Part shown: piece by piece, positions 10,931 through 26,985 of the stretch
Layout of the letters: each line of letters starts with the position of its first letter
How positions within the stretch are numbered: the stretch's first letter is position 1
Virus record (IMG/VR): IMGVR_UViG_2579779007_000002
Source of the DNA: a virus
Lineage: Duplodnaviria > Heunggongvirae > Uroviricota > Caudoviricetes
DNA length: 26,985 nucleotides
Strand: one strand, 5' to 3'
Translations under genes and position numbers: made by a program
The notes under the pieces: generated by a model
Database searches by the model: none
What the model was told of the DNA's origin: nothing
The model's input: the letters and a program-made list of their open reading frames with translations, nothing else

Positions 10931-12585
10931 TACCAGCCCCCTCGTTCAAACTGGTGATAATCATCAAAATCATCGTTATCAACATCATCACCACGGTGGC
11001 GTGGTGGCAGCGCCTGTATGCTGTCCTCGTCGATAACAAAACCATTCATATAAGACGCCCTGACAGCCATACAGAGCGCCACGGCAAAGTCGCCATGTCG
11101 TCGGCCTTTACCGCTTTCATCTTTTGTGCGCCCCTTATCAATCTGCGGGATCCCCTTATCCACCTTGATATGAAGCAGGTCATCGAGTGTGGTCTGATGC
11201 CGGGCAATCGTGATGTTCTGCGCTTCAAACTCGCCTTTCAGTTTCGGCATCCACTCCTGATACCAGGCGGCGGTCAGACTGATGCAGTCGATCATCTCCG
11301 GGCCATAAATCAGACGGGCGGCTTCTGCCAGATAACCGCCGTTACCGGTGGCATCAAATGCAGCGCCGGTAAAACGGGGCAAACGGGACAGAATGAATAA
11401 AAGGATTTGTCGCTGCTGGTCATAGGTCACATTACGCAGCTCCACGCGGAAACATTCGCGTTTGCGTAAGTCAGGAGTGATGGCAAGCGGCACAAACACT
11501 GTCAGGTCGCCACGGCGTGCAAAGTCTTCGCCCAGTACGTGTTTATTGAGCGGCGACAGCGCATCGAGCAACGGGAGCAGCTCCTGTTCACACCAGTCCT
11601 GAACGATGCCGTGGCGCATTTGTGGTGTCAGCGACTCAAAATCGTCCGGGGCTTCAAAACGCAGAATCGGGATATCCCGCGCTGGCGTCATGGCGGCTTC
11701 AATCAGCACGCGTGACAGATAAGCGCCCCCGGATTTTTTAGGAATGCAGCCGTATTCCTCGTCGGCACTCTCTTTATTCGGCGCATTACGGTACAGGCCA
11801 TCACGCCAGGCTTTTTCCGCTTCCGGCGACCACGACTGATTCGTGACGTAACAGATACGCCGGTACAGTCCGTCAGCGATGGCATCATCCAGCGTGATGC
11901 GGTGAACGCTGTAATCCTTGCGCCCCTCGCGCGCATCCTGAATGTACTGGTTAAACAGGTTATCGACGCCGTTATGTGTCGATATGATCCGCACGCGGGC
12001 ACCCCACATGGTGAGCGCAAAAGCCGCTTTCAGGAGTTCGTCCAGGGCTTCATGAAATGCCGCCTCATCAATCACCACGTCCCCCTGCAAACCACGCAGG
12101 TTAGACGGACGGCTTGACAGCGCCTGCACCTTAAATCCGCTGTTCGGAAAGCGGATCATGTAGGTGAGGATTTCTTCTTTTTTGTCGCTGTCCCAGAAGG
12201 TCTGCTCCCATACGTCAGCCTTTGCCAGCTGGTTAAAGGCGCGGGCAAACAGGGCACAGGCGGCAATGTATTCCAGCGCCATTTCCTGACGAGAACCCAC
12301 ATAAAAGACGTTGCGACCACCGCGACGCCTCGGCTTTGCGGCCGTCATGACATTGCGGCCCGCTTCGGCCCATGTCAGACCGGTACGACGGGATTTTTCA
12401 GCGATGCAAATCTGGCTTTCATCCTCAAACCAGCGGCGCTGATAGCCCAGAAAAACCGGTTCATTGCGGGGCTGTGCTTCCCCGATATCGGTCACGATAT
12501 TCACGCCGAGCAGTCCGGCTTCCTCACGCAGGTTGATTTTGCGGGGCGCATGAAGGGCTTTAAGTTTGCTTTCTCTGGTGCTCAC
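10930..12585 (-). CDS. E: terminase large subunit
   Basis: 551 aa ORF followed by portal. Start is GTG at 12585 (in-frame TGA 8 codons upstream, no in-frame ATG nearby). Confidence 0.85.
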   Translation of the reverse strand: MSTRESKLKALHAPRKINLREEAGLLGVNIVTDIGEAQPRNEPVFLGYQRRWFEDESQICIAEKSRRTGLTWAEAGRNVMTAAKPRRRGGRNVFYVGSRQEMALEYIAACALFARAFNQLAKADVWEQTFWDSDKKEEILTYMIRFPNSGFKVQALSSRPSNLRGLQGDVVIDEAAFHEALDELLKAAFALTMWGARVRIISTHNGVDNLFNQYIQDAREGRKDYSVHRITLDDAIADGLYRRICYVTNQSWSPEAEKAWRDGLYRNAPNKESADEEYGCIPKKSGGAYLSRVLIEAAMTPARDIPILRFEAPDDFESLTPQMRHGIVQDWCEQELLPLLDALSPLNKHVLGEDFARRGDLTVFVPLAITPDLRKRECFRVELRNVTYDQQRQILLFILSRLPRFTGAAFDATGNGGYLAEAARLIYGPEMIDCISLTAAWYQEWMPKLKGEFEAQNITIARHQTTLDDLLHIKVDKGIPQIDKGRTKDESGKGRRHGDFAVALCMAVRASYMNGFVIDEDSIQALPPRHRGDDVDNDDFDDYHQFERGGW

Positions 12586-12640
12586 GGGTGAAAAATCCGG
12601 TATAAATTTTCAGGCATTAATCAGTAAAAAAGAGGTTTTT

Positions 12641-12835
12641 ATGAAAGAGAAACTGACCATTGATCAAAAAATCGAAATTGCCCGGATAGCCGTGCAAATG
12701 TTTGAATCCACCCGGGCAAAAGGCGTTTCACTTGAGATCTCCTGTTCAGGAAAAGCATCAGTGGAAGAAAACACATTTAATGCTTTCTACAAAATTGTTG
12801 AAAAAACCGTTATCGGTGAACCTGAGAATAACTGA
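12641..12835 (+). CDS. small hypothetical protein, 64 aa, in AT-rich insert
   Basis: ATG at 12641 preceded by AAGAGG with 5-nt spacer; TATAAA box at 12601-12606; stop followed by GGCCCG/CGGGCC stem at 12842-12860. Product MKEKLTIDQKIEIARIAVQMFE... not recognised. Confidence 0.45.
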   Translation: MKEKLTIDQKIEIARIAVQMFESTRAKGVSLEISCSGKASVEENTFNAFYKIVEKTVIGEPENN

Positions 12836-13013
12836 TCACCTGGCCCGCTGTAGCCGGGCCATCCACCAGTTGCATAACCAGATACAGGGCCTCGGCCATA
12901 ATTCGTGGATGGACTTCCGGATCCTCATCAATCTGTTTTTTCACAACGGGCCACAGTGCCATTGCCAGTTCTGTTGAGGTCTTGTATTTAGTTTTTTCAT
13001 CCGCCATTTTCAT
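12810..13013 (-). CDS. small hypothetical protein, 65-67 aa, in AT-rich insert
   Basis: GAGGAG Shine-Dalgarno directly upstream; ATG at 13013 and again at 13007 (better spacing). Its 3' end overlaps the convergent plus-strand ORF by 26 bp. Confidence 0.45.
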   Translation of the reverse strand: MKMADEKTKYKTSTELAMALWPVVKKQIDEDPEVHPRIMAEALYLVMQLVDGPATAGQVISYSQVHR

Positions 13014-13017
13014 CTCC

Positions 13018-13188
13018 TCAGGACAAAGTCCTTAGTTGTTTTATGGTCGTATGCCATGAATTGCCTGAAGCCATAGCCTGAACAAGCACATCCCGAATCT
13101 GGTGTATCAACCGGACATCAGACAATGTTGCAATCCTGAAGGCTTTTTTATGGGCACTGATTAGCTGTGCTTTGTAATTATTTTTCAT
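13018..13188 (-). CDS. small hypothetical protein, 56 aa, in AT-rich insert
   Basis: Internal ATG of track ORF 13018..13383, located 11 nt after the stop of the D-like gene. Stop codon overlaps the Shine-Dalgarno of the next ORF (translational coupling). No own Shine-Dalgarno. Confidence 0.35.
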   Translation of the reverse strand: MKNNYKAQLISAHKKAFRIATLSDVRLIHQIRDVLVQAMASGNSWHTTIKQLRTLS

Positions 13189-13198
13189 AACGTAACGC

Positions 13199-13789
13199 CT
13201 ACGCTTTCCCCAGCAGTACATCACGGATGCGCTGCTCCAGTTCTTCGCTGATGCCATCCTGCCCGCGCAGTTCTTCACTGACGGCGTTTGCCGCTTCTTC
13301 TGCGAACGCCTGGCGGATTTCTTTCTCGCGCCGGTGGCTGGACATTGCTGTGGATTCCAGACGCTGTGCCGCCAGCATGGCATTTTTCAGCAGGTCAATA
13401 TCCACGTCAGATTCCGGGTTTTCGATTTGCCGCATCATGGCCTTAAAAAGCTGGCTGCGGGCCATTTCCAGAATCAGCTTTGTGGTTTCGCCCATTGGCT
13501 TGTCGCCAAGCTCTGCGGTCAGTGCTGACGTCATTTCACGCATCTGTCGCAGGTTATGGCCTACCTGCTCGACGTTCGTCGCGTAACGGTTCAGACCGGA
13601 ACGGGAGAGTTTCATCTCATCCGGCAGGCCAGCGTCTTCAATCAGTGCGTTAATTTCTTCAAGAATACGGGCCTGTGGGATCGCCTTATCACGCAGCATT
13701 TCATGCAGCGTTTTACGTACGTTTTCCGGCAGTAAATCCACTTTTGAAGCCCGTCCCCGTGTTTTCCTGTCCATCACGCCTCCTGTCAT
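13199..13789 (-). CDS. D: terminase small subunit-like DNA-binding protein (Mu gp27 position)
   Basis: 196 aa ORF (start possibly internal Met 6) in the slot preceding large terminase in Mu. Confidence 0.6.
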   Translation of the reverse strand: MTGGVMDRKTRGRASKVDLLPENVRKTLHEMLRDKAIPQARILEEINALIEDAGLPDEMKLSRSGLNRYATNVEQVGHNLRQMREMTSALTAELGDKPMGETTKLILEMARSQLFKAMMRQIENPESDVDIDLLKNAMLAAQRLESTAMSSHRREKEIRQAFAEEAANAVSEELRGQDGISEELEQRIRDVLLGKA

Positions 13790-16520: not shown

Positions 16521-16545
16521 AAAAAAAGCCGGATTAACCGGCTTT
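16521..16545 (-). terminator. rho-independent terminator of the early transcript
   Basis: Minus-strand AAAGCCGG-uuaau-CCGGCUUU stem-loop followed by a run of 7 U, starting 6 nt after the mor stop codon. Confidence 0.65.
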
Positions 16546-16550
16546 ACTGT

Positions 16551-16940
16551 TTACAGAAGTGAGGGCTGGTACTGGCGGTATTTCAGCCGTCGCATCCGGC
16601 GAATGGCCTTGTAAACCGTATTGAAAGTGACACCATAACGGGTGGTCAGTTCGCTGACGTTGCGACCGTTAAAATCATTCCAGATACGCAAATCCCGAAT
16701 CAGCGAGTCCAGAACCTGACCGCGTGGAATGTAGACCTGACCGCCACCCAGATGCTTACAGATAGCCACAACAATCTCCAGTGAATGGGCAGGATCAACA
16801 CCCAGCCGGGACAACTCCCCGCGCAGTAAATCGTTCAGCTCCGCCAGCAGTGCCGGAAAGCGTGACGCATCCTCTGCGGGATTGTCAAGATGTGCCAGGA
16901 TGGTGTCATCCTGCAAATCACCAAATAAATCTTCCGTCAT
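16551..16940 (-). CDS. mor: middle operon regulator Mor
   Basis: 129 aa, same length as Mu Mor; paralogous to C (shared FNGRN motif). Confidence 0.85.
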   Translation of the reverse strand: MTEDLFGDLQDDTILAHLDNPAEDASRFPALLAELNDLLRGELSRLGVDPAHSLEIVVAICKHLGGGQVYIPRGQVLDSLIRDLRIWNDFNGRNVSELTTRYGVTFNTVYKAIRRMRRLKYRQYQPSLL

Positions 16941-17569
16941 TGTGCCATCCTCCGTGTCTTTCTGGCATGGGCATAAGCCGCCGTCATGGCATCATAGCCG
17001 CGCAGTTCACGCCCGGACGGACTGACCGGCAACGGAAGCCCGTGACGGGAAAAGGCTTCACGAATACAGCGGATATGCCACTGCTTGAGAGTTTCGAGAA
17101 CAATCAACAGGGTGTCGCCATGACACCACGCCAGCGTGGAAACACCCTGTCCGCCATTACGTTTCGCCGTCAGGCGCTGAACATATTTATCCAGCGCCAC
17201 ATCACCGCCATCGGTAATAAAACCGTCTTCTGCCATCTGCTGCCAGACTTTGTATACCTTCTCGCGGGGCGTGACATGCCCCTTAAAGCGGCGACGTGGA
17301 TGTTTATTCAGCTTCTTAAAGCCGCGTTCTTTCATGGCATCGAGCACCTGTTCCAGTTGCGTTACCGTCAGCTCGCGGCAACTGATTTTGCCCGTTTTCT
17401 GCATCAGAAAAGCGCGGTAAGTATCGTCGTCGAGTTGTAGATCACGACGGGCGACATGGATTAATTTAATCAGGGATGTGCGACTCATGATCATACCTTT
17501 AAAAAGCGGTGCTACCACACCGCTTGTATCGCTGAAACACTTTCCGGTCATATCGGCCAGATTAGTCAT
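16937..17569 (-). CDS. gemA: GemA-like early regulatory protein
   Basis: Position immediately upstream of mor; true start probably the internal Met at 17494 or 17488, giving about 183-185 aa. Confidence 0.55.
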   Translation of the reverse strand: MTNLADMTGKCFSDTSGVVAPLFKGMIMSRTSLIKLIHVARRDLQLDDDTYRAFLMQKTGKISCRELTVTQLEQVLDAMKERGFKKLNKHPRRRFKGHVTPREKVYKVWQQMAEDGFITDGGDVALDKYVQRLTAKRNGGQGVSTLAWCHGDTLLIVLETLKQWHIRCIREAFSRHGLPLPVSPSGRELRGYDAMTAAYAHARKTRRMAQ

Positions 17570-17903
17570 TCCAATACTCTAGCTCAGTTCTGATTTCTTC
17601 ATCGATCTCATCATTTGTGACTTCTTCATCCAGATAGTCGCGGGCCTCTTTACAATACTTTTCTCGGCATGTTGCATACCAGTTAGAAAACTCCGGTGAC
17701 CAGCCTGTGTCCTTGCCGTCGTAATCAAACCTGGCGTTTTTCTCAGCCATGCTTTCAACCATGTTTTCAGCCGTAATAAGCCCTAATTCACGCACCCCAC
17801 GCAAAAAACTTTTACGCATGTGAGGGCTAACTTTTGAATCACAAACAGGCTTAAATCTGACTTCCCAACGGCGAATACAACGTGCATTAAGTGATTTGCT
17901 CAT
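17562..17903 (-). CDS. hypothetical early protein, acidic C-terminus
   Basis: 113 aa ORF in early accessory block; no recognised motif. Confidence 0.45.
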   Translation of the reverse strand: MSKSLNARCIRRWEVRFKPVCDSKVSPHMRKSFLRGVRELGLITAENMVESMAEKNARFDYDGKDTGWSPEFSNWYATCREKYCKEARDYLDEEVTNDEIDEEIRTELEYWND

Positions 17904-17905
17904 AG

Positions 17906-18574
17906 TTATGCTTCCTGAATACGCTTAAACTCAATTACCCATACCCACGGATTAGACAGCCAGTTATCTTGCCCATAAATACCGCGCCAGATATCACCAA
18001 AACTAACGCGATAAACAGCTTCCGGTGGCGTAATTTTGTACGTCGCCGGAAATGCGCCTTCCGCTTTCGCATCTGCCTCGCTAATGTCATGCAGCCGTTC
18101 CACACGCACGTCGGTTATTCCCAACAGAATGCGCGACGCCCAGCGCGGCATGTGGATAGATGGGCACCACCTGCCATCAAACTTTTCATTCACAGTGCGA
18201 GGTTTCCAGTCAGCATCATCAGGTATTGACCACAGACCGTAATCACCAGGCTTTTGTTCACAACTTGCCCGATAAATCCTTGCTGCCTTCTTCTCATCGC
18301 CATGACAAAGGTTGCCGTTCCAGTCCACACTGCAACCATCCTCATTGCCTAATATTGCCCACGCTTCACGGACCCAGATGCGATCACCAACGTTACCGAA
18401 CGGGCATAAACCATGCTTAGGTGCATCCATAACGTGGGTATAAACACCGTTACGATGGATAACCAGACAGTTATCGTGTCCGACATTTTTTACCGGGCGG
18501 CGTGTTTGCGTCTTTCTTCCTTCGAGAATTGCCCTGACCATATCGTCATTAAAAGCAACGCCACGTTCTTTCAT
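17906..18574 (-). CDS. hypothetical early protein, possible ASCH/PUA-like fold
   Basis: 222 aa; N-terminal FNDDMVRAILEGRKTQTRR resembles the basic Gly-x-Lys-T-x-T-x-R motif of ASCH domains; recognition by eye only. Confidence 0.45.
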   Translation of the reverse strand: MKERGVAFNDDMVRAILEGRKTQTRRPVKNVGHDNCLVIHRNGVYTHVMDAPKHGLCPFGNVGDRIWVREAWAILGNEDGCSVDWNGNLCHGDEKKAARIYRASCEQKPGDYGLWSIPDDADWKPRTVNEKFDGRWCPSIHMPRWASRILLGITDVRVERLHDISEADAKAEGAFPATYKITPPEAVYRVSFGDIWRGIYGQDNWLSNPWVWVIEFKRIQEA

Positions 18575-19095
18575 TTAGCGGCCCCCTTTAACGCAATCTT
18601 TGCCTTCATGAATTCATCGGACAGGATTTCCGTCATGCAGCCCGGTGCGGGTGTCATCCCCGTCATGACGTAAATCACATCACCAACACGGAACCACCGG
18701 AGCGGCCCGAATATTGTTGCGCTGAAATCCAGTCCCAGTGCGGGTAAGAGAGCGTCAGTACGGGCATAAGTGACCGGAATATTCTCCTGCCATATTTTCG
18801 CCAGCTCTTTTGACTGCTCCCGCAGATGTGCAGGAATGCGCGATGTTCTTGGCCTGCAACTGTTACCTGATGCGGGCCGTTGTACGGTCCACAGCTCCGG
18901 CGAGAAAGGTCGCTCACTCCCTGGAAAATTCACGCCATGAAAATGACGCCCACCAATACCTGTGCTGAATACTGACCGGCAACCACAACCCAGAACCTTA
19001 TCAAGATGGCGGGCTTCTTCGCGTAGTTTCAGGCAGTCCGCCATAAACTGATCCCATGCCAGCAGTGCTGCGGGATTTGACGTTTTAAAAAACAT
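18571..19095 (-). CDS. hypothetical early protein
   Basis: Start set at internal Met (ATGA overlap with upstream stop at 19095); the track's longer start at 19134 would overlap the upstream gene by 40 nt. Confidence 0.45.
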   Translation of the reverse strand: MFFKTSNPAALLAWDQFMADCLKLREEARHLDKVLGCGCRSVFSTGIGGRHFHGVNFPGSERPFSPELWTVQRPASGNSCRPRTSRIPAHLREQSKELAKIWQENIPVTYARTDALLPALGLDFSATIFGPLRWFRVGDVIYVMTGMTPAPGCMTEILSDEFMKAKIALKGAAK

Positions 19096-19625
19096 CACGC
19101 CACCTCCTGCACTGCTGCGGGAGCCGGAGAACAATCAAGAATGAGATAACGCAGTACATGGTCGGTGATATTCCAGGCGCTTGAACTGCAAATAAAACGC
19201 CCCAGCCGGATATCGATATAAGCCATCACAAAACGGGGCATTCCCTGTTCACACATTCTGTTATCCACCTCAGCAACAATGTGGACTGACTCACAGGTCA
19301 GCACGCCCGTCGCAAACTCTTTTGCCAGCGCGGGGATGGTATTACCTTCCACCCAGGGTAATGAGCGACGCCAGTTGCACCACACCGCATCATCAACAGC
19401 AGGCTGCTCAGTTGCGTTTCGTCTTACAGGCGGCGTCGGACGCGGGCGCGGAACGTCATAAAATCCGTTGCATTCGGTGAGCACTCCGGCATCAACCGCA
19501 TCACGCAGGAAATACACCATTGACGAGGGCAGCATATTCATTTTTTCAGCCAGAACTCCGCAGGTCAGGCGTCCGTAAGCCCGTAATAATGTGCTGACAC
19601 CATTCAGAATTTTTGCATCAACCAT
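19095..19625 (-). CDS. hypothetical early protein, possible winged-helix N-terminus
   Basis: 176 aa ORF directly downstream of gam after a 98-bp AT-rich gap. Confidence 0.45.
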   Translation of the reverse strand: MVDAKILNGVSTLLRAYGRLTCGVLAEKMNMLPSSMVYFLRDAVDAGVLTECNGFYDVPRPRPTPPVRRNATEQPAVDDAVWCNWRRSLPWVEGNTIPALAKEFATGVLTCESVHIVAEVDNRMCEQGMPRFVMAYIDIRLGRFICSSSAWNITDHVLRYLILDCSPAPAAVQEVA

Positions 19626-19723
19626 GTTTTATTCCTCAGTAATCTGTTTCAGGCGCGAGCAATCCCCTGACGTATCGCGCCATAATTAAAAGAATGTGAA
19701 TTAATTAAATATTAATGGTGGTA

Positions 19724-20248
19724 TTAAATACCGGCTTCCTGTTCAAATGGAATAATGGAAAAATCTTCAATTCCCGATTTAACCGTAATTCCGGCAACAC
19801 CTGCGACGGCTTTTGGTTCCAGTAAAATCGCCTCCTTGTTGATTTCCTGCTTCGTGCGAATAAAGCGTTGCAGGCCAAGGCGCTCCAGCGTTTCCATCAC
19901 TGCATCCATACCACGAATACTTACTGATGGTGGACGGACCCGCCACGATACATCACCGGTGACAAGATTCGCCGTCTTCACTTTGCCGCCGTTCGTCAGT
20001 TCGTCGCGGTTCGCTTCACACCATCCCTGAACGCCTTTTGAAAGGGTTTCAATATCGGTTTTAATCGGTGCAATCCGGGCTGCAAATTTCTCCGTAATTT
20101 CCGCGATGGCATCATTCATTTCCGTTTCCAGACGTGATGCTTCGCGCTGTAAATCCCCGATGCGTTTAATATCGGTAATCACCGCATCGCGGTTTTGTGG
20201 CACATAAGCCGCTGCGGCACTTTTGATACGTTTTGCTGGTTTAGCCAT
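19724..20248 (-). CDS. gam: host-nuclease inhibitor Gam (Ku-like DNA end-binding protein)
   Basis: 174 aa; sequence MAKPAKRIKSAAAAYVPQNRDAVITDIKRIGDLQRE... matches my recollection of phage Mu Gam essentially residue for residue. Confidence 0.9.
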   Translation of the reverse strand: MAKPAKRIKSAAAAYVPQNRDAVITDIKRIGDLQREASRLETEMNDAIAEITEKFAARIAPIKTDIETLSKGVQGWCEANRDELTNGGKVKTANLVTGDVSWRVRPPSVSIRGMDAVMETLERLGLQRFIRTKQEINKEAILLEPKAVAGVAGITVKSGIEDFSIIPFEQEAGI

Positions 20249-20267
20249 AAATTAAAGCTCCTGTTAA

Positions 20268-20567
20268 TTAATATCCGCCGTATACAATGCTGGATACAGT
20301 TCGATTGCTTAATTCCATCTTTCGGGCAATGACATGAATATCCAGCCCTTCTTTATAAAGTTCACGACATAAATATTTGTCGTGTTCACTGATTCGGTAT
20401 ACACACAATGATATTCCGTGCCTTCTGGCATGTGCCCGGAGGGCGGTTGTGGCGACTTTCAGTTTTTCCGCCATTTCTTCAACGGTCATTTTCCCGACGT
20501 TGGCTTCGATAAATTCCCGGTCTTCGCGTGACCAGCGCTTACGATTACACTTCATGTCAGCCACCAT
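20268..20567 (-). CDS. hypothetical early protein, possible helix-turn-helix
   Basis: 99 aa; ATG abuts the stop of the upstream ORF; alternative start at Met 5 (20555). Confidence 0.45.
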   Translation of the reverse strand: MVADMKCNRKRWSREDREFIEANVGKMTVEEMAEKLKVATTALRAHARRHGISLCVYRISEHDKYLCRELYKEGLDIHVIARKMELSNRTVSSIVYGGY

Positions 20568-20987
20568 TCAGTACAGCAGAGGCTCGCGCAGTGATGCCGG
20601 AATATGCCGCAGCGATAACTGAACCGCTTTCAGGGCAAGCGAGGAATAACAGCAGCGCGCCCAGCCTTTAGCCATTAACCGATAATCGCGCCAGATACGC
20701 TGCCACATTTCACGGGCTTTAGGGTCTGATGCGCAGATGTATTCCCGGTCCATGACGTACTCCCATAAATCCACGTTGAACGCACCGCCAAATGCAATGG
20801 CGCGGGATATGCTTTCGCCGCAATAACGCGCACAGATGCTGTAATGGTCGAAAGCAATCAGGTAAGTCTTTTCACCACAATCATCAACTTCACGCGCACA
20901 AATAAACTCGCGTAATTCACCACCGTTGTTATTGCGTTCCTGAATTCGGATTAATGCCTGAATTTCATTTCGGATTTTGACGTTCAT
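20568..20987 (-). CDS. hypothetical early protein
   Basis: 139 aa Cys/Trp/Arg-rich ORF; unrecognised. Confidence 0.45.
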   Translation of the reverse strand: MNVKIRNEIQALIRIQERNNNGGELREFICAREVDDCGEKTYLIAFDHYSICARYCGESISRAIAFGGAFNVDLWEYVMDREYICASDPKAREMWQRIWRDYRLMAKGWARCCYSSLALKAVQLSLRHIPASLREPLLY

Positions 20988-21007
20988 TGTCAGCGTTCCT
21001 TTGCGAA

Positions 21008-21277
21008 TTAATGTTTAACCGCATTCACCGGATGTGGTACTAAATCACATTCAGCTTCCATACCCACTTTCTTCATAGTGGTCAGCATCTCATCTTTGGC
21101 CTTTTTAATAATTTCAGGAGCCATAGTCAGGACGATATTTGCCAGTAAATCATGAGGCCCGGTATTTTCCGTTGGCGAGATATCTGCAAGACATGCTTTT
21201 GCATCCAGAACTTCTCTGCGCCCATTGCAACCGTCACTACTTTCCAGCCATGTAAACTCAAAGATAACCTTTGCCAT
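21008..21277 (-). CDS. hypothetical early protein
   Basis: 89 aa ORF; unrecognised. Confidence 0.4.
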   Translation of the reverse strand: MAKVIFEFTWLESSDGCNGRREVLDAKACLADISPTENTGPHDLLANIVLTMAPEIIKKAKDEMLTTMKKVGMEAECDLVPHPVNAVKH

Positions 21278-21288
21278 TTTGTTTCTCC

Positions 21289-21543
21289 TTATTGATTCTG
21301 AATAACTGCGCTGGCTTTTACCTTCGCGCCTTTTACCTGCTTAAAGAAAACTGCGCTGCACCACGGACAACATGTCAGGGAATCCCGAATTTCCTTTTCG
21401 GGTGAGCATTGCGTCATAATCTGTTCACCACATCCGGGGCATTTATATGTCGTCAGCGGCACCCCGTGGCACTGACAGTGTTTAACCCATTCAATATATT
21501 TTTCAGCTTTAATACACATCGTTATCTCCAGATAATCTGGCAA
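21289..21543 (-). CDS. Cys-rich small protein, putative zinc ribbon
   Basis: 84 aa with 10 Cys, including CQCH, CPGCGE and CCPWC clusters. Confidence 0.45.
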
Positions 21544-21749
21544 CCATTAAGACGGGCCGTCCATACAGAACGGGCCACCCCGGACTTATGCTCCATAATT
21601 CTGACCGCGCTTTTTACCAGTTCCACCGGTGGGTAAGTGATTTCAAGAATCGGACGCGCCACACCGAGATATGATTCATTTACATGACTCCCGCGCGCCT
21701 GTAACCAGTTCTGCGCATCCGTTGCCATTTTTATATTTCGGGCCATCAT
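21522..21749 (-). CDS. small early protein at the kil position
   Basis: 75 aa ORF immediately downstream of B, the slot occupied by kil in Mu; identity not verified. Confidence 0.45.
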
Positions 21750-21764
21750 AATTTCTTCTCCTTC

Positions 21765-22703
21765 TTAATTACGCAGCAGCGTTGAAATATCAACGTCCAG
21801 GTCTAATTCACGGAAAGCCTGACGCAGATAATCTTCGTTAACACGCTCACCTTTACCGTGAGCCGTCATGGCTGCAAGGCGAAGTGAATGATTCAGAATG
21901 CGAAGCGCACCTGGTTTCTGCGCAATCTGCTGTAATAACTCCAGTTCTTTTTCGCCGTTAATCTGCCAGGCATCCGCAATAGCTTTTACATCGGCTTTTT
22001 TGGTTTTATTAATTGCAGTGCGCTTTGCAATACGGGAAAACAGACGGGCAAATTCAACCGTTCTGTTACCCCCCGTCATATTTGAATAAACCCGGTGATT
22101 TCCCATCAGCACAAGGCCAATACGGGTTGATTCCTGTAACAGGCGGAGTTCTTCCAGAACTTCGGCACCAAGATGATCAGCTTCGTCGATGATAACCAGC
22201 CCCTGTGTACCTTCAAGGCGACGTCGCAGGGCGCGGGAGAGCGGCCCTTTACGGCGTGGTGCGTCATTCATTCCCAGCTCAAACGCCAGTTCAGTAAGAC
22301 ATTCCAGAACGCTGGCACAGGATGGCGTAATGGTGATCATCCAGACATTGTTATTGGTGCGGCGATATTCACGGGCCGCTTCGGTTTTGCCCACACCAGG
22401 ATTGCCACATACAACAGCAATACTTTCAGTCAGGCTGGCAAAACGCATACTTGTCCAGATTTGTTTTACCGTCTGCGTTTCCACAAAGCGGGGCGGTTCA
22501 GGTAGTTCTGCAACTACATGATATTTTTCCAGCCAGCGTTGCAGCATTTGTGAAACACGCTCGTTATCCCCGTTGTACTTATCATTGATAAAACTACTGA
22601 TAGTTCCGGTAGAAAGTCCGCTCTCAAGAGCAATTTGTTTAAAGGTGGTTTCTTCATTTTCTACAAGCGTGCGCAGTCCTGCGCGAATATCGGAAATATT
22701 CAT
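21765..22703 (-). CDS. B: transposition ATPase / target DNA activator B
   Basis: 312 aa, same length as Mu B; P-loop GNPGVGKT and DEAD-like IIDEAD motifs; N-terminal helix-turn-helix. Confidence 0.9.
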   Translation of the reverse strand: MNISDIRAGLRTLVENEETTFKQIALESGLSTGTISSFINDKYNGDNERVSQMLQRWLEKYHVVAELPEPPRFVETQTVKQIWTSMRFASLTESIAVVCGNPGVGKTEAAREYRRTNNNVWMITITPSCASVLECLTELAFELGMNDAPRRKGPLSRALRRRLEGTQGLVIIDEADHLGAEVLEELRLLQESTRIGLVLMGNHRVYSNMTGGNRTVEFARLFSRIAKRTAINKTKKADVKAIADAWQINGEKELELLQQIAQKPGALRILNHSLRLAAMTAHGKGERVNEDYLRQAFRELDLDVDISTLLRN

Positions 22704-22741: not shown

Positions 22742-24835
22742 TTAAATGGCTTTTTTACGTCTGTTCTGTTCCAGAATATCCAGCGAATGATTCAGATATT
22801 CATCACGCTCAGTTTCGTATTCATCATCATGCACTTCCTCACACCTCAACGGCTGAACGGTCACCACATTACCAACAGGGCGATAAACATTATCCAGCCA
22901 GGGTTCTGTCGTTTTTTGTTCAATAACCTGAATACCTTCATCCTCAGCATCACGTATTTTTTCCTCAGCACGCTTGCGCATTCCTTTAATACGCTGCTGT
23001 TGTTTGTGATATTCAGCCGTAACAGGAAAGGCTGCGCGTTTATTGCCGTTCCATATCGCCTCACAGATAAAGCTACCGTCCTTACGGCGTACCGTAATTC
23101 GCTCGGCATCGTGAATGTCATAGCTGATAAGTACCTTGCGACCATGTTCATCACGTAGCTCTGGCGCGTAGTAAATATTGTTCAGCCACTGGATTTCGCA
23201 GCGTCTTACCGGACGCTCCACCATCGGGCGGAACATGTCACGCAGCTCAATATCACTCAGCCACTCAATTTCAGTGTCTTCTTCCGCTAAGCGTTTTTTT
23301 CTGAACTCTACCGGGCTGTAATGTTTTCCGTTTGGTTTCATCGGCAATTCAGAATGTGGGCGGTTGTTGTACCACTCCACCCCCTCACGGATAGCCTCAA
23401 TCAGTTCTGACCAGGACGGCAGCTCGCGCATTGCGGCTTTCTGACGGGCGCTCAGTGGCTTGTCCTGTTGCAGGGCATTAAACGCTGAACGCAGATCACG
23501 ATTAAGTATTCGCAACGATTCCCGGTCAGCCCCCTTGCCGAAATAGGTGCGATACCTCCTTGCTATACGCATCGGTAACGTCCGGTTCAGGCGCTCAATA
23601 ATGCCGCGTCCCTGCGGATTTCCCGCAATACCGGTGGGGTGGTTAATCCCCAGGCGGGGCAGAATCCCGACGATCTCTTTATCCAGCATATCTGCCGTTT
23701 CACCGGAACCATTATCCGAGTAATACAGGAATGGTTTTCCGTGATTGCGAATGCCGTGTTGTATCGCCCCGGCAACAGCGAACACGTTCTCCGCAAGATC
23801 AAGACTCCAGCCAACCACAAACCGGGTTCCACCGTCGATCACAAACGTAACTTCCGGTGAAAATGGACGCCCGTGAACCGGATGCGCACATTTCAGCTTC
23901 ATACCGTGACCGTCACCAATCCAGACATAATTCACCGGCATAGCTGTCCAGTCGCGGCGGGTGAATCCTTCAAGCTGACGGTATTCACTGCCGGTAACGC
24001 GCCCTTTTTGTTTCACCACTTCCGGCAGTTTTTTCATGGCATACCGGACAACATCATAGGAAGGCATCACCTCCAGCATGTATGGTTCGTCCGCATGGCG
24101 ACGCTGCCAATCAGCGACAAAATCCTCGTAGGCTTCTGACATAGGCCTGCCGTTAGCCTGACGATACTGCGCCAGAAATTCAGGCAGCCAGCTAATTTCT
24201 TCCGGTTTTATTTCGTCGCGCTTTCCTGGTGCCAGTAACAGCAATCGTTCTGCGGCATTCTGTGCTTTGTTAAACGCAGCTATCCAACGTTTGAGCGTAA
24301 TTGCGCTCAGAGTTCGCTCTTTCCCTTTACGGGCATTAGCAGTAATGACCAAAGATTCCAGGCGTTCTTCCAGGTTACCCTGAGCTAACCGCGACACAAT
24401 AAAACGTATAGCGCTGGCACAACTGAATCCCGGCTCCTGGCTAATTCGTAGAACTTCACAGACAAGAGCAATACGCGCTTCTGCAACTTTACGTTGATTT
24501 TCCGTAAGCGCATTCAGACGCTCTTCTACCAATTGTGGCGAACCGCGATATGCCTCAACAGGCTGTACAACATTTTGTTTGCGTTCACGCTTTACAGGAG
24601 GCTGGGTAGTTATCTCCTGCGGGGCGGTTGCCATCAGTTGAGCTACATGGCGCTCACGTAACGCCCGTTGTGTAACCGGAGGGAGGCAGTCGATGCTGTA
24701 TTCAATGGTTTTTGAACCCGCACGTTTGCGCCTGAAATGCTCAGATGAGGCCAGTTTCCTTATGGAATACCGCACCCCTTGCGCAGTTCCCGGCATACCT
24801 GGTAGCCCTACAAGCTCATTAACTGACACAAACAT
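22742..24835 (-). CDS. A: DDE transposase A (MuA-type)
   Basis: 697 aa; C-terminal end ...ERDEYLNHSLDILEQNRRKKAI matches my recollection of Mu A; N-terminal domain is Mu-type winged helix but divergent in sequence. Confidence 0.9.
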   Translation of the reverse strand: MFVSVNELVGLPGMPGTAQGVRYSIRKLASSEHFRRKRAGSKTIEYSIDCLPPVTQRALRERHVAQLMATAPQEITTQPPVKRERKQNVVQPVEAYRGSPQLVEERLNALTENQRKVAEARIALVCEVLRISQEPGFSCASAIRFIVSRLAQGNLEERLESLVITANARKGKERTLSAITLKRWIAAFNKAQNAAERLLLLAPGKRDEIKPEEISWLPEFLAQYRQANGRPMSEAYEDFVADWQRRHADEPYMLEVMPSYDVVRYAMKKLPEVVKQKGRVTGSEYRQLEGFTRRDWTAMPVNYVWIGDGHGMKLKCAHPVHGRPFSPEVTFVIDGGTRFVVGWSLDLAENVFAVAGAIQHGIRNHGKPFLYYSDNGSGETADMLDKEIVGILPRLGINHPTGIAGNPQGRGIIERLNRTLPMRIARRYRTYFGKGADRESLRILNRDLRSAFNALQQDKPLSARQKAAMRELPSWSELIEAIREGVEWYNNRPHSELPMKPNGKHYSPVEFRKKRLAEEDTEIEWLSDIELRDMFRPMVERPVRRCEIQWLNNIYYAPELRDEHGRKVLISYDIHDAERITVRRKDGSFICEAIWNGNKRAAFPVTAEYHKQQQRIKGMRKRAEEKIRDAEDEGIQVIEQKTTEPWLDNVYRPVGNVVTVQPLRCEEVHDDEYETERDEYLNHSLDILEQNRRKKAI

Positions 24836-24837
24836 TT

Positions 24838-25074
24838 TTATGCCACCTTACGAGCGTAACGGCTGGGCCAGATCTCCTCCGGCGCAACACCAATAGCATC
24901 AGCAATAATGCGCTCATATTTTGGGCATTTGCGGTACAGGGCATTCTTTAAAGAATCCTGGTTTAAACCGGCTTCAATGGACAGAGAGCGTAAAGTAAAA
25001 CCTTTTACATGCACCGCCGCGACAACATGCGCGGGGTGCCAGTCCTGTTTAACAACTTCATTTATAGACATCAT
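24838..25074 (-). CDS. ner: Ner-like early transcriptional regulator
   Basis: Start set at the MM pair (25074) preceded by AAGGA, giving ~78 aa; contains DWH...IIA-A....PE.IWPSRY pattern shared with Mu Ner. Track ORF extends to 25146 (102 aa). Confidence 0.7.
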   Translation of the reverse strand: MMSINEVVKQDWHPAHVVAAVHVKGFTLRSLSIEAGLNQDSLKNALYRKCPKYERIIADAIGVAPEEIWPSRYARKVA

Positions 25075-25254
25075 TCGTTTATCCTTAAAAGTTATCTGTG
25101 CGGATAACACCGCCGGATAATCTCTGCGGATAAAGTATTGATCCACATGTGGTGCATGTAAAGCAAAAATTTGATTTTCTTTTGCCTGATATGGATCGAT
25201 TGTGTTTTCTATTGAAATTATCCTTTTGCATCAATTAGATAAGAGGAAAGAAAA
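25075..25254. promoter_or_regulatory. divergent early/repressor promoter and operator region
   Basis: Three direct (G/C)CGGATAA repeats at 25100, 25113 and 25126 (13-bp phasing); inverted repeat GTTATC-n6-GATAAC at 25091-25108; IHF-like AATCAAATTTTTG (minus strand) at 25164-25176; TTGAAA-17 bp-TTAGAT upstream of the repressor start. Confidence 0.6.
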
Positions 25255-25800
25255 ATGGATAAGCTGAAAGGAAAGTCACTTTCTTTGCCAGAAGTGACAA
25301 AAGAAAGTATCCCGGAGCGTTTGAGAGAATTAATTGGAAAAAGAAGTGTAAGGGCTGCTGCGAAAGATTGGGGGTTGTCGTTTTCCACTTTAAACAATTA
25401 CCTGACGCGAGGTACTGAACCTTCACTCAGTGTGGCTCGGCAGATAGCTGCAATTGAAGGGGTTACTATCGAATGGATATGTGGATCACATGATGATTCA
25501 CATGAGAATCACCCAATTTCAACTAACACGCATAATGAGAATACAAAACTCATTATGAACATCATTAACGCCTTGGATGCAAAGGATATTGAGCGACTAT
25601 CTAAGACTCTTGCCCTCAATGGTGCTAAGTATCTGACTCAAATGTTGGAACCCGAAAATCAAGGCTTACTGCGTCTTGAAGGACGAAAACGTGTCGCCGC
25701 GCTGCTATTAGATGATTTACCTGATGAGCGTATCAGAGAGATTTTGGAAGAAATTGAGAGCAGCAAACTCTCAAGTAGTGTAAAATCGAGAGCGGGCTAG
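25255..25800 (+). CDS. prophage repressor, XRE-type helix-turn-helix
   Basis: 181 aa, divergent from ner/A/B as for Mu c; motif KDWGLSFSTLNNYLTRGTEPSLSVARQIAAIEGVTIEWI resembles Cro/cI-type helix-turn-helix rather than a Mu-type winged helix. Confidence 0.65.
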   Translation: MDKLKGKSLSLPEVTKESIPERLRELIGKRSVRAAAKDWGLSFSTLNNYLTRGTEPSLSVARQIAAIEGVTIEWICGSHDDSHENHPISTNTHNENTKLIMNIINALDAKDIERLSKTLALNGAKYLTQMLEPENQGLLRLEGRKRVAALLLDDLPDERIREILEEIESSKLSSSVKSRAG

Positions 25801-25854
25801 TTCAATTAGCCCGCAGTGAACAGATTTTGAAGGCATTTAAAATGCTAAAATTGC

Positions 25855-26040
25855 AGTAACGCGTAGTATCAAATATTTTTTCGTTTTTAGCTTTCTTTGC
25901 GATGGTAGTATCAAATCGCATGTTGTGCGCATAACACTGTTTTATGTCATAACTGTTTGTTTTATCCCATCAAATCCCGTTTAATCCACTTTCCTCCCGG
26001 ATTTTTCACCAGTATCAAATAATTTACCTCTCTATATTCA
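25855..26040. repeat. prophage left-end terminal repeats (putative transposase binding sites L3, L2, L1)
   Basis: AGTATCAAAT at 25865-25874, 25907-25916 and 26011-26020, all in one orientation; reverse complement of 25990-26010 (...AAAAATCCGGGAGGA...) resembles the Mu left end. Confidence 0.55.
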
Positions 26041-26985
26041 GCTCAGCAGCGCGACCAACAGCACATCTGAAATGCTGGCGGCAACGCCAAAGTCGGTAAA
26101 GGCAGCCTATGACCTTGCTAACGGGAAATATACCGCTCAGGACGCTACGACAGCACAAAAAGGAATTGTCCAGCTCAGTAGTGCAACCAACAGCGCATCT
26201 GAAACGCTTGCCGCGACACCGAAAGCAGTGAAAGCAGCTAATGATAATGCGAATGGTCGGGTACCTTCTGCCCGTAAGGTGAATGGTAAGGCGCTTTCAG
26301 CGGATATAACACTGACGCCGAAAGATATTGGTACGCTTAACTCAACAACAATGTCATTCAGCGGTGGAGCTGGTTGGTTCAAATTAGCAACGGTAACCAT
26401 GCCACAGGCGAGTTCTGTTGTTTCAATTACGTTGATTGGTGGCTCGGGATTTAACGTGGGGTCACCTCAACAGGCAGGTATATCTGAACTTGTTTTGCGT
26501 GCAGGTAATGGTAATCCGAAGGGGATTACTGGTGCTTTATGGCAGCGCACATCGACAGGGTTTACAAATTTTGCCTGGGTCAATACATCTGGTGATACTT
26601 ACGATATTTACGTTGCAATCGGAAATTATGCGACAGGTGTAAATATTCAATGGGATTATACCAGTAATGCCAGCGTGACTATTCATACGTCACCAGCATA
26701 TTCTGCTAATAAGCCGGAAGGGTTAACGGACGGTACAGTTTATTCACTCTATACGCCATCAGAGCAGTTTTATCCGCCTGGCGCACCAATCCCGTGGCCA
26801 TCAGATACCGTTCCGTCTGGTTATGCCCTGATGCAGGGGCAGACTTTTGACAAATCTGCTTACCCGAAACTTGCAACCGCTTATCCGTCAGGCGTGATCC
26901 CTGATATGCGTGGCTGGACGATTAAGGGCAAACCTGCCAGTGGTCGGGCCGTATTGTCTCAGGAACAGGACGGCATTAAATCGCA
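25985..26985 (+). pseudogene. side tail fibre gene, 5'-truncated 3' fragment (runs off window end)
   Basis: Frame open from 25985 to window end with no start codon; from 26036 encodes two tandem QLSSATNS(T/A)[14 protein letters not shown] repeats and ...[68 protein letters not shown], typical of lambda Stf-like fibres. Not in the ORF track because it has no start. Confidence 0.65.

Follow-up and report, generated by a model that had tools for sequence, protein, structure and literature searches.

A Mu-type early accessory block with a two-gene non-Mu cassette encoding a PmgT-like, probably ASCH-fold protein

Which functions are encoded by the run of small ORFs that separates B from a gemA-like gene in this 26,985-nucleotide stretch of caudoviral DNA (the window), and do they include uncharacterized anti-defence genes? 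The first-pass annotation, made from the letters alone, counted ten co-oriented ORFs, recognized only Gam among them, and regarded the region as a variable one with host-takeover and anti-nuclease functions, and hence as a natural place for anti-defence genes. All ten ORFs are borne out: they lie on the minus strand, fill the interval 17562-21749, with B (21765-22703) on one side and the gemA-like gene (16937-17569) on the other, and each matches a phage protein family in PHROGs (E 6e-36 to 3e-106). The same ten genes are annotated in PhiR68_1. The features of the block and its flanks, ordered from B, are:

21522..21749, minus strand: kil (Mu gp5), 75 aa, 98.7% amino acid identity to Mu Kil; phrog_2743 'Kil protein', E 4e-43
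21289..21519, minus strand: Mu gp6 orthologue, 76 aa, 100% amino acid identity to Mu gp6; phrog_3786, E 1e-40
21008..21277, minus strand: gp7 allele, 89 aa; phrog_2230, E 6e-36
20568..20987, minus strand: Mu gp8 orthologue, 139 aa, 95.7% amino acid identity to Mu gp8; phrog_3690, E 1e-96
20268..20567, minus strand: Mu gp9 orthologue, 99 aa, 97% amino acid identity to Mu gp9; phrog_323, E 2e-28; helix-turn-helix ('D5-like' regulator)
19724..20248, minus strand: gam (Mu gp10), 174 aa, 100% identical to Mu Gam; Pfam PF07352, E 4e-42; DNA-end-binding nuclease inhibitor
19626..19723, minus strand: gam-gp11 spacer, 98 nt, with a GC-rich hairpin GGCGCGA...TCGCGCC
19095..19625, minus strand: Mu gp11 orthologue, 176 aa, 99.4% amino acid identity to Mu gp11; Pfam PF25754 Gp11_C, E 1e-40
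18571..19095, minus strand: Mu gp12 orthologue, 174 aa, 92.8% identity over residues 1-166; phrog_2314, E 1e-76
17530..18607, minus strand: non-Mu cassette, 1,078 bp, in the slot of Mu gp13-gp14-gp15, holding ORF9 and ORF10
17906..18574, minus strand: ORF9 (cassette gene 1), 222 aa, PmgT-like (phage P1), most likely a divergent ASCH-domain protein, with a YqfB-type GRKTQTRR motif
17562..17903, minus strand: ORF10 (cassette gene 2), 113 aa; phrog_6675, E 4e-58; predicted acidic all-helical protein
16937..17569, minus strand: gemA (Mu gp16), 96.7% identity to Mu GemA from residue 28
16525..16545, minus strand: terminator-like hairpin 3' of mor, 8-bp stem followed by a T run

Of the ten ORFs, eight correspond in position to annotated Mu genes as one-to-one orthologues, in the Mu order kil, gp6, gp7, gp8, gp9, gam, gp11 and gp12, and seven of these (all except gp7) share 93-100% amino acid identity with their Mu counterparts. 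At the DNA level the window is 97.5% identical to Mu across 18611-21749 and 97% identical to PhiR68_1 over the entire block. The gene order agrees with the annotated Mu, D108, SfMu and PhiR68_1 records; B, gemA and mor (16551-16940) are all on the minus strand, and the block, co-oriented with A and B, sits between B and gemA/mor. It is very probably the accessory distal section of the early operon in a Muvirus, i.e. a relative of phage Mu, and is largely ordinary: the well-known Mu early accessory region, near-identical apart from a two-gene cassette. The supposed additional ORF between B and gam proved mistaken, as both Mu (NC_000929: kil, gp6, gp7, gp8, gp9) and the window have five genes there.

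The tight packing noted at first sight holds for part of the block. Ordered from B, the spacers measure 15, 2, 11, 20, 0, 19, 98, -1, -4 and 2 nt, followed by -8 nt to the long gemA ORF. The gp12/ORF9 junction is the sole true ATGA overlap inside the block; gp11 and gp12 overlap by one base (TGATG), gp8 and gp9 form the one abutting pair, and two junctions have 2-base spacers. The remaining spacers are ordinary, being 11-20 nt long with Shine-Dalgarno-like sequences, plus the single 98-nt gap. The fold of this gap, which is equally long in Mu, is not significant (-17.7 kcal/mol, z -1.73). The long gemA ORF overlaps ORF10 by 8 nt, and the Mu-type gemA start (MSRTS) lies at 17488. Internal promoter-like sites show no excess over the shuffle expectation (6 observed, 9.7 expected). 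The hairpin 3' of mor likely marks the end of the early transcript; in D108 a rho-independent terminator is annotated at the equivalent place. On a single-operon model that draws on knowledge of Mu and simple pattern scans, the block would probably share with A and B a single transcript that ends at the terminator after mor, and would be translated from closely spaced or overlapping cistrons.

The host-takeover and anti-nuclease functions expected of this region are indeed represented, by Kil and Gam respectively. Kil of Mu is a host-killing protein, while Mu Gam binds DNA ends and shields them from host exonuclease. The window Gam had been correctly recognized: it matches the Pfam profile PF07352 with 144.1 bits (gathering cut-off 28.3) over profile positions 2-148 of 149. 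Mu gp9 is a helix-turn-helix protein, and its orthologue here has several helix-turn-helix matches in Pfam, all of them sub-threshold. The gp6 orthologue, delimited here as the first ATG-started version (21289-21519; the mechanical ORF list runs on to a TTG at 21543), contains nine cysteines including two CxxC pairs and recovers weak zinc-ribbon matches in NCBIfam that fall under the cut-off; it is probably a zinc ribbon. PDB sequence searches recovered no match for gp8 (for which there is also no Pfam match), gp11, gp12, ORF9 or ORF10.

The gp7 slot is occupied by an unusual version, 99% identical to that of PhiR68_1, 40% to D108 gp7 and 25% to Mu/SfMu gp7, with relatives in just 7 clusters among 5.8 billion proteins. 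It aligns end to end with Mu/SfMu gp7, sharing the MAKVI... start, the terminal H and the slot, and Mu gp7 weakly cross-matches phrog_2230 (E 0.009). ORF 21008-21277 is thus a divergent allele of Mu gp7.

The major departure from Mu is the cassette. DNA homology to Mu and D108 ends at 17529/17523 and restarts at 18608; the final 8 residues of the gp12 orthologue fall within the swapped cassette, its Mu homology stopping at 18608. No similarity to Mu gp13, gp14 or gp15 was found. Contents of the gp12-gemA slot differ among Mu, D108, SfMu and the window phage, and since SfMu also varies in the gp13-gp15 slot, these genes are not universal in the genus (PMC4406740). In the ~49-kb Yersinia phage vB_YpM_41 there is an 81% DNA match to 17564-18574, and the ORF9-ORF10 pair is present with an identical 2-nt spacer (89% and 65% amino acid identity respectively); the codon differences between the window and vB_YpM_41 are 42 synonymous-only and 19 residue-changing in ORF9, and 35 and 39 in ORF10. 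Certain ~49-kb E. coli plasmids carry ORF10 at 90-92% nucleotide identity. The cassette was probably gained by recombination, and outside Mu-type phages it most resembles sequences of ~49-kb phage-plasmid-like elements. Among 5,426 complete genomes of E. coli, 38 have a close Mu-type segment from gam to gp12, and 8 of these 38 contain the full block.

These comparisons support the view of the block as a variable accessory part of the early region, mosaic among Mu, D108, SfMu and Yersinia Mu-like phages (cf. PMC4406740). A comparison with Mu and D108 had been proposed as a means of finding lineage-specific genes. Not all ten ORFs are one-to-one Mu orthologues, ORF9 and ORF10 being without Mu counterparts, but neither is exclusive to this lineage: both also occur in PhiR68_1 and in the 8 complete E. 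coli genomes, and vB_YpM_41 carries them as a pair. The suggested profile searches placed every ORF in a PHROGs family, and structure prediction yielded no fold match for ORF10 and a poor AF2 model for ORF9.

ORF9 belongs to a large family of more than 8,000 homologues, in which a conserved core is interrupted by hypervariable inserts. Comparison of 20 diverged homologues (36-56% overall identity) revealed four near-invariant motifs, MVRAILDGxKTQTRR, GDRIWVRE, PSIHMPRWASR and PWVWVIEFKR. E. coli copies are named 'ASCH domain-containing protein' in RefSeq. The Pfam ASCH profile (PF04266) matches 24 of 40 homologues at E 10 or better, and the best of them (P0016, E 3.9e-4, 21.5 bits vs the gathering cut-off of 21.2) is the only one of the 40 to reach the cut-off; the window ORF9 itself has no Pfam ASCH match even at E 10. 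The residues G19-R-K21-T-Q-T24-R-R26, invariant or nearly so across the family, fit the ASCH octapeptide G-x-K-T/E-x-x-x-R and are in register with G19RKTITIR26 of E. coli YqfB (query sequence verified as PDB 1TE7) in an alignment covering YqfB 5-32. Against shuffled sequences, YqfB ranked 3rd of 3,001 with an HMM of the family core and 2nd with one of the full family. The core-HMM alignment, itself weak, consists of two collinear segments and places the invariant E172 of ORF9 opposite YqfB E74. The reported catalytic residues of YqfB are K21, T24, R26 and E74 (bioRxiv 10.64898/2026.02.27.708502; PMC6972931). Other comparisons count against an ASCH or amidohydrolase identity: the ORF9 family profile recovered nothing from the PDB even at E 10, hhalign to YqfB returned a probability of just 10.6%, and BLASTP with an insert-deleted ORF9 gave no match to YqfB. 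The AF2 model has a mean pLDDT of 51 and is confident solely at residues 150-220, which form a strand-helix-helix-strand unit.

On the motif and profile evidence, ORF9 most likely adopts the ASCH fold and is an enzyme. Like YqfB, it may hydrolyse the N4-acyl group from cytidine, free or in tRNA, but this is a tentative assignment: ORF9 is twice the size of YqfB and misses the single-domain size of ~100-110 aa of YqfB-type enzymes, and the ASCH preprint points out that in certain family members the deacetylase activity could be a relic (bioRxiv 10.64898/2026.02.27.708502). Alternatively, and rather doubtfully, it might be a non-catalytic PUA-like/ASCH nucleic-acid binder that recognizes RNA or modified bases and thereby modulates host or phage gene expression. 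According to later accounts of the original work, the initial prediction for ASCH and related PUA-like domains was that they bind RNA and modified bases (Iyer et al. 2005, cited in PMC12704722; PMC12707154; PMC7641849), and the invariant additional basic motif PSIHMPRWASR could provide a nucleic-acid contact. However, the Lys, Thr, Arg and Glu with catalytic roles in YqfB are invariant or nearly so across the ORF9 family, which points more to an active site than to a binding surface.

ORF10 has 205 homologues in 52 representative clusters, and all the named ones are from Enterobacterales. Its AF2 model is confident (pLDDT 89.8, pTM 0.82), and a fold search with it recovered no match in the PDB or BFVD. 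ORF10 is predicted to be a soluble acidic helical protein, and its gene is sometimes linked to ORF9-type genes. Because ORF10 adjoins such a gene in only 24 of 97 loci, a functional pairing of ORF9 and ORF10 is not established.

As to the initial question, beyond Gam, an inhibitor of host exonuclease, nothing links any ORF of the block to anti-defence. The ORF9-ORF10 cassette, perhaps along with the variable gp7 slot, might still be conceived as an anti-defence module whose early proteins neutralize host immunity, with ORF10 serving as an acidic inhibitor or decoy and ORF9 erasing or reading a modification of nucleic acid that a defence system uses. The varying cassette slot in Mu, D108, SfMu and the window phage would be in keeping with this, as would the hypervariable inserts around a conserved core in ORF9 homologues, the small size, acidity (pI 5.0) and mobility of ORF10 between Mu-like, lambdoid and phage-plasmid genomes, and the observations that P1 pmgT is non-essential and dispensable for plaque formation (PMC10695390) and lies in a part of P1-like plasmids that varies strongly (PMC9603915). 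Yet many phage accessory genes that serve other roles are likewise small, acidic and variable, PDB sequence searches with ORF9 and ORF10 and PDB and BFVD fold searches with ORF10 showed no similarity to a described anti-defence protein, and no ORF of the block matches the PADLOC defence-system models; such a module is improbable. That the small ORFs are chance open frames in transcribed spacer, as the shortness of several (75-113 aa) and their lack of a Pfam family might suggest, is virtually excluded by the conservation data: every ORF has a phage family match at E 6e-36 or better, homologues at 36-90% identity occur in other genera, and many codon differences are synonymous-only. In addition, the starts have Shine-Dalgarno-like sequences upstream or lie at coupled junctions.

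The only lead to emerge from the block is a possible phage-encoded N4-acylcytidine amidohydrolase. In its boldest form, which we consider a long shot, the PmgT-like ASCH proteins of temperate enterobacterial phages, ORF9 included, would be active early N4-acylcytidine amidohydrolases that erase ac4C in host tRNA or another N4-acyl mark, with the hypervariable inserts and the frequently adjacent ORF10 tuning target choice in the conflict with the host.

Placed beside known systems, the block shares with the kil-gp15 region of Mu (NC_000929) its position between B and gemA, its strand and its order. It differs in gp7, only 25% identical, and in having ORF9 and ORF10 where Mu has gp13, gp14 and the opposite-strand gp15. 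All ten genes, the gp7 allele, ORF9 and ORF10 among them, recur in PhiR68_1 (PV340575) and in prophages from 8 complete E. coli genomes (NZ_CP027447, for example); DNA identity over the entire 4,188 bases is 97-98%. However, gp6 (78%) and gp11 (89%) of PhiR68_1 are less similar to the window than the Mu versions are, and the window is therefore a further mosaic. In PhiR68_1 every gene other than gam is annotated only as hypothetical. YqfB, an N4-acetylcytidine amidohydrolase consisting of a minimal ASCH domain (PDB 1TE7, 9KYF), shares with ORF9 the GRKTxTxR motif at residues 19-26, the Glu aligned with E74, a GDxxxV motif after the first strand and a C-terminal VIEFK strand; it has 103 aa against the 222 aa of ORF9, which bears inserts of ~30 and ~65 residues, and the overall similarity is not significant (BLASTP, PDB profile search). 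Homologues of ORF10, 73% identical, are found in Kluyvera and other Enterobacterales among the early-left accessory genes of lambdoid prophages, in the interval between the recombination genes and int, often just downstream of a 363-aa gene whose sequence by itself reads as RecT/Bet-like (28 loci). This set is likewise early, dispensable and shuffled, whereas the phage type and the neighbours differ from those of the window. Finally, PmgT of P1, the first gene product of the C1-controlled pmgT-pmgU-pmgV operon, is annotated with 309 aa and has no ORF10 homologue adjoining it, pmgU and pmgV being unrelated to ORF10; nevertheless, it shares 65% amino acid identity with ORF9 over 229 aligned positions and a DNA core that is 86% identical, and both genes reside in early, repressor-controlled accessory operons.

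The window is a Muvirus genome in which the gene strand is minus throughout, and the block at 17562-21749 is an ordinary variant of the classical Mu accessory early region with a gene set that has already been deposited. It comprises ten minus-strand ORFs situated between the transposition gene B (21765-22703) and the gemA-like gene (16937-17569), which is followed by mor (16551-16940). All ten matched PHROG families (E 6e-36 to 3e-106) and are real genes; the count of ten in the first-pass annotation is thus borne out by both the ORF list and these matches. Megablast searches showed that Escherichia phage PhiR68_1 (PV340575) matches 17562-21749 end to end at 97.0%, and that Mu (NC_000929), D108, Mu_3F6 and Mu-like phages of Yersinia match 18611-21749 at 93-97.5%. 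The whole block was also recovered from 8 complete E. coli chromosomes (94-100% coverage, 97-98% identity). Searches of the block ORFs against Pfam and NCBIfam gave only Gam and Gp11_C above cut-off, an Rfam scan of the entire window gave no RNA families, PDB sequence searches with gp8, gp11 and gp12 gave no credible relative of solved structure, and literature searches gave no functional study of Mu gp6-gp12. Taken as a whole, the block makes no addition to the existing knowledge of phage Mu.

The spacers from B onward measure 15, 2, 11, 20, 0, 19, 98, -1, -4, 2 and -8 nt. Inside the block, one junction is an ATGA overlap, one a 1-base overlap and one an abutting pair, and two have 2-nt spacers; hence, tight junctions do exist, as had been proposed, but the many ATGA or abutting junctions of that proposal reduce to a single instance of each. 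A promoter scan found 6 promoter-like sites against 9.7 expected from shuffled sequences, i.e. no excess, and a terminator-like hairpin lies 3' of mor (16545-16525), where a rho-independent terminator is annotated in D108. In Mu a single early transcript runs through mor, and the promoter scan and the post-mor hairpin would be consistent with the same arrangement here. The sole long gap in the block, 98 nt, separates gam from gp11 (19626-19723) and is of equal length in Mu; it contains a GC-rich hairpin (GGCGCGA...TCGCGCC) with an AT-rich stretch upstream, the fold energy of which is not significant relative to shuffled sequences (z -1.73).

Gam is the only gene of the block for which a counter-nuclease role is established. 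PADLOC models, a library of defence proteins rather than anti-defence ones, returned no meaningful match to any of the block ORFs. An anti-defence role is a reasonable prior for a region of this kind, with nothing in these data in its support.

Two of the ten ORFs form a mobile two-gene cassette, which is common to the deposited phage and several prophages:
17906-18574, minus strand, ORF9, the PmgT-like first cassette gene, 222 aa
17562-17903, minus strand, ORF10, the second cassette gene encoding a small protein predicted to be helical, 113 aa
The pair and its 2-nt spacer recur in the 49-kb circular Yersinia phage vB_YpM_41, whose DNA match spans exactly 17564-18574 at 81% identity, with protein identities of 89% and 65% for ORF9 and ORF10 respectively. 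A close Mu-type gam-gp12 segment is present in 38 complete E. coli genomes, and 8 of them carry the cassette.

ORF9 is 65% identical to PmgT of phage P1, which is encoded by the first gene of an operon controlled by C1 operators, is non-essential by CRISPRi (PMC10695390) and is situated in a part of P1-like phage-plasmids that is highly variable (PMC9603915). Its family is very large, with more than 8,000 homologues (8,000 candidates were scored, and every one passed the E 0.001 threshold), and combines a conserved core with hypervariable inserts. The motifs MVRAILDGxKTQTRR, GDRIWVRE, PSIHMPRWASR and PWVWVIEFKR are almost unchanged in 20 homologues that are 36-56% identical overall, and both the sequence and the length of the two inserts, which in ORF9 span roughly residues 28-60 and 73-135, differ among the homologues (fetched loci L014-L109 and the window). 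In RefSeq the copies in E. coli are named "ASCH domain-containing". The Pfam ASCH model did not match the window's own ORF9; it matched 24 of 40 homologues, one of which reached the gathering score (21.5 vs 21.2 bits). The GRKTQTRR motif (ORF9 residues 19-26) is invariant or nearly so in the family. An hhalign comparison placed ORF9 5-32 on residues 5-32 of YqfB (the sequence compared being identical to PDB 1TE7), such that K21, T24 and R26 coincide, with an E of 0.0029 but a probability of only 10.6%. Ranked against shuffled copies, YqfB was 2nd of 3,001 with the full-family HMM and 3rd of 3,001 with an HMM from which the insert had been removed; the alignment with this core HMM consists of two collinear segments, in which the invariant E172 lies opposite E74. 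YqfB is a minimal ASCH domain acting as an N4-acetylcytidine (ac4C) amidohydrolase, for which K21, T24, R26 and E74 are the reported catalytic residues, and erasure of ac4C from tRNA has recently been reported for diverse ASCH proteins (PMC6972931; bioRxiv 10.64898/2026.02.27.708502); the ASCH eraser preprint makes no mention of phages (bioRxiv 10.64898/2026.02.27.708502).

Other comparisons were negative: BLASTP of the insert-deleted ORF9 against YqfB gave no alignment, a single-sequence search of PDB with ORF9 gave one marginal match to ASC-1 (E 0.01) in the wrong register, a profile search of PDB with the family gave nothing even at E 10, and the AF2 model built from 40 homologues was unusable (pLDDT 51). 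Literature searches on PmgT and phage ASCH proteins recovered only the P1 essentiality data and comparative notes, and no functional study. On the basis of the sequence comparisons the assignment of ORF9 as a divergent member of the ASCH superfamily appears fairly secure; it is possibly also a YqfB-like amidohydrolase, a tentative reading that we consider less likely than not. The YqfB-type motif in this very widespread PmgT-like family is the sole lead from the block that merits a bench test.

ORF10 is far less common, with 205 homologues, all the named ones being from Enterobacterales, and only 52 clusters, many of which are fragments, were recovered when 1.84 billion representatives were searched exhaustively with a profile. 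With a pI of 5.0 the protein is acidic; its N-terminal MSKSLNARCIRRW is invariant and its C-terminal helix acidic. A relationship to P1 PmgU or PmgV was considered and rejected as there is no similarity. We fetched 104 loci with ORF10 homologues, 97 of which had sufficient flank to be judged: 24 of these possess an ORF9-type gene, always immediately adjacent (8 upstream, 16 downstream), and the remaining 73 lack one within about 5 kb. The adjacency may point to a link between the two genes, which is not obligatory. In lambdoid prophages the ORF10 homologues occur in the early-left accessory region, and in 28 loci (among L013-L116) a 363-aa gene, which from its sequence we read as probably RecT/Bet-like, is present just upstream; ORF10 would therefore usually travel with the lambdoid recombination and accessory module. 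ORF10 is further found on E. coli plasmids of about 49 kb (90-92% nucleotide identity), adjoining an ead/Ea22-like gene.

The Mu start of gemA (MSRTS) lies at 17488; the longest gemA ORF (16937-17569) has 27 further codons in front of it, starting at 17569 and overlapping the end of ORF10 by 8 nt. In vB_YpM_41 the ORF10 homologue has the same 8-nt overlap with the gene that follows it, which is an unrelated one; hence, the upstream gemA ATG may have been brought in by the cassette, and the true start may be either 17569 or 17488.

Beyond the block, the DNA matches of Mu, D108 and PhiR68_1 end at 22832, a short distance within transposase gene A at its 3' end, whereas those of the Yersinia phages vB_YpM_5 and vB_YpM_6 run on to 25000 (98%), implying that most of gene A and the adjoining immunity region are a non-Mu module. 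The latter region includes:
24838-25146, ner-like ORF, in the immunity region adjoining gene A
25255-25800, plus strand, repressor-like ORF, in the immunity region
The G+C content is 0.40-0.46 beyond 24.5 kb (24501-26985) and dips to 0.48-0.51 around 12-13.5 kb (12001-13500), the late region being at about 0.55.

In the comparison with Mu, eight of the ten ORFs have a positional orthologue there. Gam and gp6 are 100% identical to their Mu counterparts, gp11 99.4%, Kil 98.7%, gp9 97.0%, gp8 95.7%, and gp12 92.8% across residues 1-166. The additional ORF suspected between B and gam proved mistaken, there being five in Mu (kil, gp6-gp9) and five here. The ORF at 21008-21277 was not matched to Mu gp7 by BLAST; aligned end to end, it shows 25% identity to gp7 of Mu/SfMu and 40% to that of D108, begins with MAKVI and ends in His as they do, and its PHROG gives a weak full-length match to Mu gp7 (E 0.009). 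We read it as a divergent gp7 allele, and its interpretation as a new gene was rejected on the end-to-end alignment. This allele is rare, being represented by 7 clusters in 5.8 billion proteins and by 19 of 5,426 complete E. coli genomes.

The two non-Mu ORFs are not confined to this lineage, as their cassette recurs elsewhere. DNA homology to Mu and D108 ends at 17529/17523 and restarts at 18608, with 1,078 bases here in place of the 746 bases of Mu that contain gp13, gp14 and the opposite-strand gp15. A mosaic replacement in the same block has already been documented in SfMu (PMC4406740). The natural swap of gp13-15 for ORF9-ORF10 between otherwise near-identical Mu-type phages is of modest value: being clean, it would allow either cassette to be tested by simple genetics.
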